Source: a bacterium (GTDB taxonomy: Bacteria; Patescibacteriota; Minisyncoccia; UBA6257; JAGOQP01). Taken from it: a DNA stretch of 58,914 nucleotides. The stretch is taken from positions 1 through 58,914 of the forward strand of contig JAKAIF010000002.1 in the NCBI GenBank assembly GCA_021814445.1. Reading direction: 5' to 3'. The notes beneath the pieces were generated by a model. It was not told the DNA's origin. It made no database searches and was given only the letters and a program-made list of their open reading frames with translations. Positions 26,180-26,316 of this stretch are shown here, one piece after another (the first letter of the stretch is position 1; each line of letters opens with the position of its first letter). The position numbers and the translations under genes are program-made.

Positions 26180-26316
26180 TATGCCCAGTAATACAACGAC
26201 GGCATTTGGCTTTCAGCCAAAATGTGGAACGTGTTATATTATTGGGGACTATAACAAATTATTATTAATTATTACGACATCGGTTTTTAAAAGCCGTTGT
26301 TGATATACTGGGTATG
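26180..26316 (+). promoter_or_regulatory. TATG-flanked inverted-repeat element in the groES-groEL spacer, ending on the groEL start codon
   Basis: CCCAGTAATACAACGACGGC (26184-203) pairs with GCCGTTGTTGATATACTGGG (26293-312) at 17/20 positions. TATG on both sides. Confidence 0.6.

Follow-up and report, generated by a model that had tools for sequence, protein, structure and literature searches.

A probable MITE-like hairpin element at the groEL start codon of a Patescibacteria genome

The spacer between groES and groEL, in the 58,914-nt stretch of Patescibacteria DNA analyzed here (the window), contains a long hairpin, most probably a non-autonomous, MITE-like element of Patescibacteria (Paceibacteria group), inserted at the TATG of the groEL start. 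The element belongs to a family of repeats featuring TIRs, a TATG duplication, presence/absence polymorphism and a computed fold. By sequence, ends and target, the family sits in none of the named ones, and is regarded as previously undescribed. A MITE-like insertion with a 4-bp TATG duplication was among the readings offered by the original prediction: it is well supported by the finding of empty and filled orthologous sites, of a second copy within the window and of further copies in other Patescibacteria.

Both genes lie on the + strand: groES (Cpn10, Pfam PF00166; 25855-26142), the upstream gene of the operon, is separated from groEL (Cpn60, PF00118; 26314-27951) by a 171-nt spacer. The element, termed A-type, has a body spanning 26184-26312 and is 137 nt long including its flanks; all its parts are described here on the + strand. 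The 5' copy of the target-site duplication (TATG, 26180-26183) is followed by the 5' TIR (CCCAGTAATACAACGACGGC, 26184-26203), by an interior (26204-26292), composed of a small hairpin at 26205-26221 and then of an A/T-rich stretch, and by the 3' TIR (GCCGTTGTTGATATACTGGG, 26293-26312), which includes TGATATACT at 26301-26309. The groEL start codon (26314-26316) lies within the 3' copy of the TATG (26313-26316) and takes part in the basal pairs of the stem. The two arms are complementary at 17 of 20 positions (16 Watson-Crick pairs and one G-U), their pairing being interrupted by a 3x3 ATA/ATA internal loop. The ATG of the 5' copy opens a 40-codon uORF (26181-26303), whose TGA stop lies 10 nt ahead of the groEL ATG. 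Spacer length, arm pairing, flanking TATGs, position of the groEL ATG within the 3' one and existence of the uORF, all previously noted, were re-found.

The arm sequence occurs only once in the window, when up to 3 mismatches are allowed. In Rfam no family was found for the element, its best local match scoring 27 bits where the gathering threshold is 100; over the whole window, two tRNAs only were reported at the gathering threshold, and the E-value threshold also returned nothing relevant.

Comparison of groESL spacers in related genomes had been proposed as a check on the origin of the hairpin. The GroEL protein assigns the window to Patescibacteria/Paceibacteria; ten relatives were recovered, with GroEL identities of 73-93%, and sites with an A-type element, with a B-type element and with no element were all found. 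Locus L081 (86% GroEL amino acid identity) features the same element at the same junction, 86% identical at the nucleotide level. Its arms equal those of the window except for one G to A change, converting the G-U pair into A-U; its interior is about 75–80% conserved, while the A-type interior cannot be aligned with other family members. Third codon positions of groEL are just 51% identical between the window and L081. An identity of about 98% in the arms, between genomes with saturated synonymous sites, is a counterpoint to the MITE reading: selection on RNA function could be an alternative cause.

The closest relative, L161 (93% amino acid identity), carries at exactly the same junction a different family member, of B-type, whose interior is unrelated, and whose ends, CTATACCAGGTAGTG...CTACTACCTGGTATG-GCA, are related to those of the window element. 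The groEL site is empty, with spacers of 19-39 nt, in L162 (92%), L163 (89%), L168 and L006. In L167 and L168 the start of groEL reads CTATGGCA, the element being absent, and loci L164-L167 contain other, unrelated inserts in the spacer. In the GroEL tree, the window clusters with L161, L162 and L163, and L081 with L164 and L165: compared with the occupancy of the site, these groupings indicate that the distribution of the element does not follow vertical descent. Three contigs from the same species are identical, and no within-species polymorphism was seen among them.

Unrelated hairpin-forming inserts, 90-200 nt long, are observed in the groES-groEL spacer of many Patescibacteria (L002, L005, L008, L010, L014, L016, L017, L032, L165 and L167). 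A 22-bp near-perfect inverted repeat is found in the L016 spacer, and repeats of the GGAGTCATGA type in L005 and L008. Palindromic insertions thus have a hotspot in this spacer. The family described here is also a warning for annotators, who should take the long hairpins common between groES and groEL in these bacteria as insertions rather than as conserved riboregulators.

The second copy in the window was located by BLAST with the L161 element, both ends of which matched at 19741-19882. This copy, of B-type and on the + strand, reads TATG-CCAGGTAGTGAAAGTTTGG...CCAAACTTCTACTACCTGG-TATG, and the ATG of uvrA (19880-22837, + strand; Pfam domains of UvrA are found on L212, an identical contig) lies within its 3' TATG. 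A putative uvrA promoter, TTGTTT-16-TATAAT, can be read from the sequence at 19703-19730 on the + strand, 10 nt upstream of the copy: L207, L208 and L211 share this conserved block, which was not called by the consensus scanner because its -35 box matches at 3 of 6 positions only. In L207, which comes from the same genome as L161, the orthologous uvrA site is cleanly empty, with a single TATG (GTTAC TATG CCAAAAGC); as judged from the position of the putative promoter, this arrangement would yield a near-leaderless uvrA mRNA. The site is empty also in L211. In L208 and L209 (about 3368-3387) a 15-nt insert, CATCTATATACCCTG, precedes the uvrA TATG: resembling the B-type 3' end (TTCTACTACCCTG), it is probably the deletion remnant of a former copy.

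Other features were observed in the same region. Downstream of uvrA, at 22841-22946, an A/T-rich imperfect palindrome is present. Past the groES stop of L162 and L081 the motif ATTTCTAATTTCTATTAAAT appears again, and weaker versions are found in the window, both in the groES-groEL spacer and in the region 3' of uvrA; it could be a terminator, an UP-like element or another repeat.

In all, 8 copies of the family were counted in 6 genomes, over about 1.2 Mb of sampled loci, 2 of them in the 58.9-kb window; HMMs of the element ends, run over the same loci, found no copies beyond the known ones. An A-like copy in L164, TACG-CCCAGTAACATTAC...GTAATATTACTGGG-TATG, ends on the groES ATG (z = -3.95). 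In L010, a distant Portnoybacteria contig, a B-type copy ends on the ATG of a M48/HtpX-like peptidase gene and holds a second copy nested inside. A reversed B-type copy, in L167, precedes the groES promoter and is away from start codons. Full-length copies range from 133 to 173 nt, flanks included, while the L167 copy is 86 nt long. Flanks are TATG on both sides in 3 copies, and one position is changed in 3 others, where the 5' flank is TATA or TACG: on this side the window and L081 have TATG, and L164 has TACG.

B-type ends, in four genomes, feature a fixed asymmetry: the 5' end reads GTAGTGAAA, while the 3' end, once reverse-complemented, reads GTAGTAGAA. A CCNNGTA core is all that the A-type has in common with the B-type at the ends (about 8 of 13 positions), so that their placement in one superfamily is tentative. 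In a hand-built alignment of 7 copies, 89% of the cells are paired and 10 of 22 pairs change on both sides; none of 500 shuffles equalled these figures. The same pairing would be expected from inverted repeats that share an origin, under either DNA or RNA constraint. Conserved coding capacity is absent from the family, and no gene is called within the element on the identical contig.

An autonomous partner, in the form of a transposase gene between matching TIRs, was not found in the window or in the sampled loci. When viral contigs were scanned, the B-type 5' end gave 38 matches, none of which has a partner arm, as expected for chance matches, and the A-type 5' end gave none; a BLAST search of plasmids with both window copies produced no match. 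Stems with their end on a start codon were also sought in two generic scans, which were too noisy to detect new members and revealed no general excess over controls. Upstream of groES in L165, at a distance of about 0.5 kb, a transposase gene of the rve family (IS3/IS481-like) is found at 1118-2033 between perfect 19-bp inverted repeats (TGTTGCGAAGCTATTGAAC); this IS was considered as a relative and rejected, its TIRs being unrelated to those of the hairpin family. Readings as an IS200/IS605-type element or as an integron attC site were set aside on anatomy, given the long TIRs and the target duplication.

Folding was evaluated by RNAfold. For the region 26143-26330 a minimum free energy of -47.1 kcal/mol is predicted (z = -3.95), and none of 200 shuffles folds as well. 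A palindrome arisen by chance, or a structured spacer specific to the lineage and devoid of mobility, might be proposed in view of the unrelated long hairpins found in the same spacer of many Patescibacteria. This explanation is scarcely credible: besides the comparison with shuffled sequences, the same termini recur across several genomes, at uvrA, groES and htpX, between TATG flanks and with orthologous sites that are empty.

The predicted structure is composed of an outer 12-bp helix (26179-26190 paired with 26306-26317), which includes the groEL AUG, and, inside it, of a 10-bp inner helix and a multiloop with the small hairpin 26205-26221. The sense-strand fold of the window groEL copy has a predicted energy of -42.9 kcal/mol, with a probability of the AUG being unpaired of 0.00 at 37 C and 0.05 at 65 C. 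For the six copies located at start codons, energies range from -36 to -77 kcal/mol and the same probability from 0.00 to 0.32 at 37 C; interrupted duplexes of 21-24 bp are predicted for the window groEL and uvrA copies and for the L161 groEL copy.

Such a fold may be taken as the mark of a dedicated cis-regulatory RNA, acting as a translational lock or thermometer on groEL, groES, uvrA and htpX, where heat or a stress factor would open the stem and mobility would be secondary. In each of the six start-codon copies the AUG is predicted to be paired, the arms show conservation and covariation, the genes concerned are all heat-shock or DNA-repair ones, and the lack of CIRCE in the window leaves heat-shock control unexplained. 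Yet the AUG, although masked, has a computed probability of being unpaired not above 0.05 all over the 10-65 C range, the stem (-43 to -47 kcal/mol) being far above known thermometers in stability: a thermometer was rejected in silico, as stability up to 65 C makes melting unlikely. Moreover, copies are patchily distributed among close relatives, one site is occupied by two different members, interiors are unalignable, a nested copy, a reversed copy away from start codons and a remnant are found, and the set of genes is biased, all loci having been gathered around groEL. A dedicated regulatory RNA is, on balance, quite unlikely.

As to heat-shock control, CIRCE (TTAGCACTC-N9-GAGTGCTAA) has no match in the window at up to 3 mismatches. 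The groES promoter, TTGATT-16-TATAAT (25745-25772, + strand), has been conserved both by L161 and by L164. In the groES 5' UTR, two small hairpins rich in GC lie side by side (25781-25799 and 25800-25819), and CTTAATACWTACTA direct repeats (25820-25847) come after them, an arrangement shared with L161 and L163. Given the absence of CIRCE, these hairpins and repeats may be the real heat-shock control region.

The uORF suggested a different kind of switch, in which ribosomes translating its 40 codons would unzip the stem, terminate just ahead of groEL and start again on its ATG. The window offers an ideal geometry, since the uORF stop falls so close to the groEL ATG and the 5' ATG lies 38 nt past the groES stop. 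However, the stem also includes the 5' ATG among its paired bases, and this ATG is lost in 3 of the 6 start-codon copies, being replaced by ATA in L161 and L010 and by ACG in L164. A frameshift in L081 leaves a uORF of 24 codons, which stops about 60 nt ahead of groEL. The peptide is not conserved, and the uORF is left uncalled by gene callers on the identical contig. As far as can be read from its sequence, L161 is in effect a natural ATG to ATA mutant of the uORF start. The uORF-opened RNA switch, advanced in the original prediction, thus fails as a conserved mechanism, and is very improbable as an explanation of the hairpin.

The position of the copies relative to genes was analyzed. The 3' TATG is the start codon of the next gene in 5 of 7 insertion events (6 of 8 copies), and the genes involved are groEL (twice), groES, uvrA and htpX, all related to stress or repair. 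Among the TATGs of the window, 31 are at start codons and 65 are other non-coding ones: a rough binomial estimate, calculated by hand, gives p of about 0.04 for the start-codon excess. For the bias towards stress and repair genes, gene tables of the sampled loci give a rough, post hoc estimate of about 1e-3, which is weak, because all loci were collected around groEL and the category was set after the fact. The target context AC-TATG-NCAA is shared by 3 of 4 targets, so that an extended target preference could explain the repeated hits on the groEL site. The association of the family with start codons is therefore suggestive only; still, placement on the start codons of stress and repair genes, at this frequency, is unexpected for a purely selfish element.

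Start sites of the host have features of their own. A Shine-Dalgarno-like 4-mer precedes 6 of the 63 crude ORFs of the window, and 31 of 51 ATG starts (61%) read TATG. The 9-mer TGNTATACT occurs 7 times in the window, each time with a start codon at most 31 nt downstream (gaps of 4, 6, 7, 9, 9, 28 and 31 nt), and we infer that it may be the extended -10 box of the host. Hexamers similar to a -10 box show a modest peak 6 nt before ATGs. These data suggest that many host genes may be leaderless or near-leaderless.

The outward promoter assigned to the element in the original prediction is only partly sustained. In its favor, TGATATACT in the 3' arm, present in the window and L081 copies, is an exact match to the putative extended -10 promoter box of the genome. 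The three mismatches of the stem coincide with the difference between TGATATACT in the 3' arm and TGTATTACT in the 5' arm when reverse-complemented; at this position the 3' arm differs also from both L164 arms (..TATTACT), so that, by sequence comparison, it looks derived towards the host -10 consensus. Against it, the box is just 4 nt from the groEL ATG, versus 6-31 nt at other genes, and B-type copies are without a box of this type. A start site at the usual distance of 7 +/- 1 nt past the box would land on, or after, the G of the groEL ATG. A scan for consensus sigma-70-like promoters detected no + strand promoter inside any element.

On the minus strand, four elements contain a sigma-70-like match in their A/T-rich 3' half, directed towards the 5' arm (e.g. 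TTAATA-16-TAGAAT): the matches are at 26261-26290 and 19827-19854 in the window, at 2897-2924 in L161 and at 1950-1977 in L164. Their frequency does not exceed that of shuffled sequences; an antisense transcript originating in the element is conceivable.

From the comparison of orthologous sites, the element most probably inserted into the TATG carrying the groEL start codon, and the 4-bp duplication left the gene with its own ATG intact at the 3' junction and with a decoy ATG at the 5' junction, creating an accidental uORF: on this reading, both hairpin and uORF are by-products of the inverted repeats and of the duplication. The TIRs, co-transcribed in the groES-groEL mRNA, are expected to fold into the interrupted helix of 12 and 10 bp, which buries the groEL AUG. 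Since GroEL is presumably indispensable, the intact hairpin is probably not the translated form. Two routes may lead to a translatable message. By the first, RNase III would cut the stem of about 22 bp, splitting the groES and groEL messages and freeing the AUG; such processing, another of the readings offered by the original prediction, is plausible by analogy with the Correia elements of Neisseria (PMC2649163, PMC10969869). No RNase III gene was found among the 9 window ORFs examined with Pfam. By the second, transcription would start from TGATATACT in the 3' arm, giving a nearly leaderless RNA without the 5' arm, which would fit a Shine-Dalgarno-poor genome. By either route, groEL expression would be uncoupled from that of groES. 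RNase III cleavage, promoter activity and any regulatory benefit of the element are put forward here as suppositions.

The association with start codons may also be read as the sign of a portable 'start-codon cassette'. A mobile hairpin, preferring the TATG starts of leaderless or near-leaderless groEL, groES, uvrA and htpX, would keep the ATG by means of the duplication and then lock the AUG in a stable stem, to be released by RNase III, by a helicase or by a promoter born in the arm. This proposal is rather doubtful; were it true, a mobile module would be rewiring the stress regulon of ultra-small bacteria lacking control of the CIRCE/HrcA type.

A different repeat was also observed in the window: a 32-bp palindrome (CCATTCAACGATTGAC, GTCAATCGTTGAATGG) is present in four copies (7416-7447, 7755-7786, 14035-14066 and 49769-49800), of which only the last is perfect. 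Its half-sites are 8, against 0.54 expected. The copy at 14035, located between convergent genes and with A and T runs at its flanks, resembles a bidirectional terminator; the repeats could be REP-like sequences, terminators or operators. Finally, a tRNA (44501-44571) lies inside a perfect 17-nt inverted repeat (44491-44507 and 44564-44580), which lengthens the acceptor stem by 10 bp and could be either a precursor-processing stem or the signature of an insertion.

Small mobile repeats of the tiny, streamlined Patescibacteria genomes are little studied, and no description of MITEs in this group was found by literature searches. The likely insertion at groEL, along with the other copies, indicates that streamlined genomes tolerate, and may use, hairpin transposons within an essential chaperone operon and on start codons. 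Very stable stems on the AUG provide a natural experiment on translation start in Shine-Dalgarno-poor, leaderless-rich genomes.

Among known systems, ROSE and fourU thermometers and the CIRCE/HrcA system also associate a chaperone gene with an inverted repeat or with a masked initiation region. The hairpin stem, in contrast, is too stable to melt, the CIRCE motif is missing and the element is mobile; in addition, the family is not limited to heat-shock genes by any shown mechanism.

REP sequences and REPINs, mobilized by RAYT transposases, are extragenic hairpins with compensatory changes, and a GTAG tetranucleotide is found in REPs. The B-type end contains GTAG as well, a match that may be a coincidence. 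Arms of the hairpin family, unlike those sequences, are not short palindromes, no RAYT gene was seen, and a clear 4-bp duplication is present; to our knowledge, REPINs have no target duplication.

ERIC, BOX, RUP, Chunjie, other bacterial MITEs and similar small palindromic repeats are, like the hairpin family, small transcribed inverted repeats located in intergenic or operon spacers; they are reported to alter mRNA stability or to leave operons intact (PMC10969869; see also PMC2229807, PMC3184786). Termini, target duplication and hosts differ from those described here.

The likeness is more extensive with the Correia elements (CREE, or NEMIS) of Neisseria. Both families are non-coding and delimited by TIRs, with a short target duplication and comparable sizes (about 70-157 bp for CREE, 133-173 nt for full-length hairpin copies). 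Both are often found just 5' of genes and inside operons, where they are co-transcribed and their inverted repeats form mRNA hairpins, and both vary in presence from strain to strain. Ends of CREE can create outward promoters, one of them 5' of uvrB, RNase III cleaves the copies that are transcribed, and in one reported case the terminus of a CREE falls on the A of an ATG (PMC2649163, PMC10969869). CREE target TA or CA, and their ends differ from the CCCAGTA.. and CCAGGTAGTGAAA.. of the hairpin family (PMC2649163). Sequence similarity is absent, and the duplication is TATG (4 bp) instead of TA: as neither the Correia terminal repeat nor the TA duplication is found, membership was rejected, and the resemblance is functional only. 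The hosts also differ, that of the hairpin family being a streamlined, Shine-Dalgarno-poor, leaderless-rich Patescibacterium, and in most known hairpin copies the end coincides exactly with a start codon. Features of CREE include RNase III cleavage, IHF binding and promoter activity, while the hairpin family is known from sequence alone. If the -10 box of the arm, or processing by RNase III, proved true, the family would be a case of Correia-like rewiring of expression by mobile DNA, in a very different lineage.
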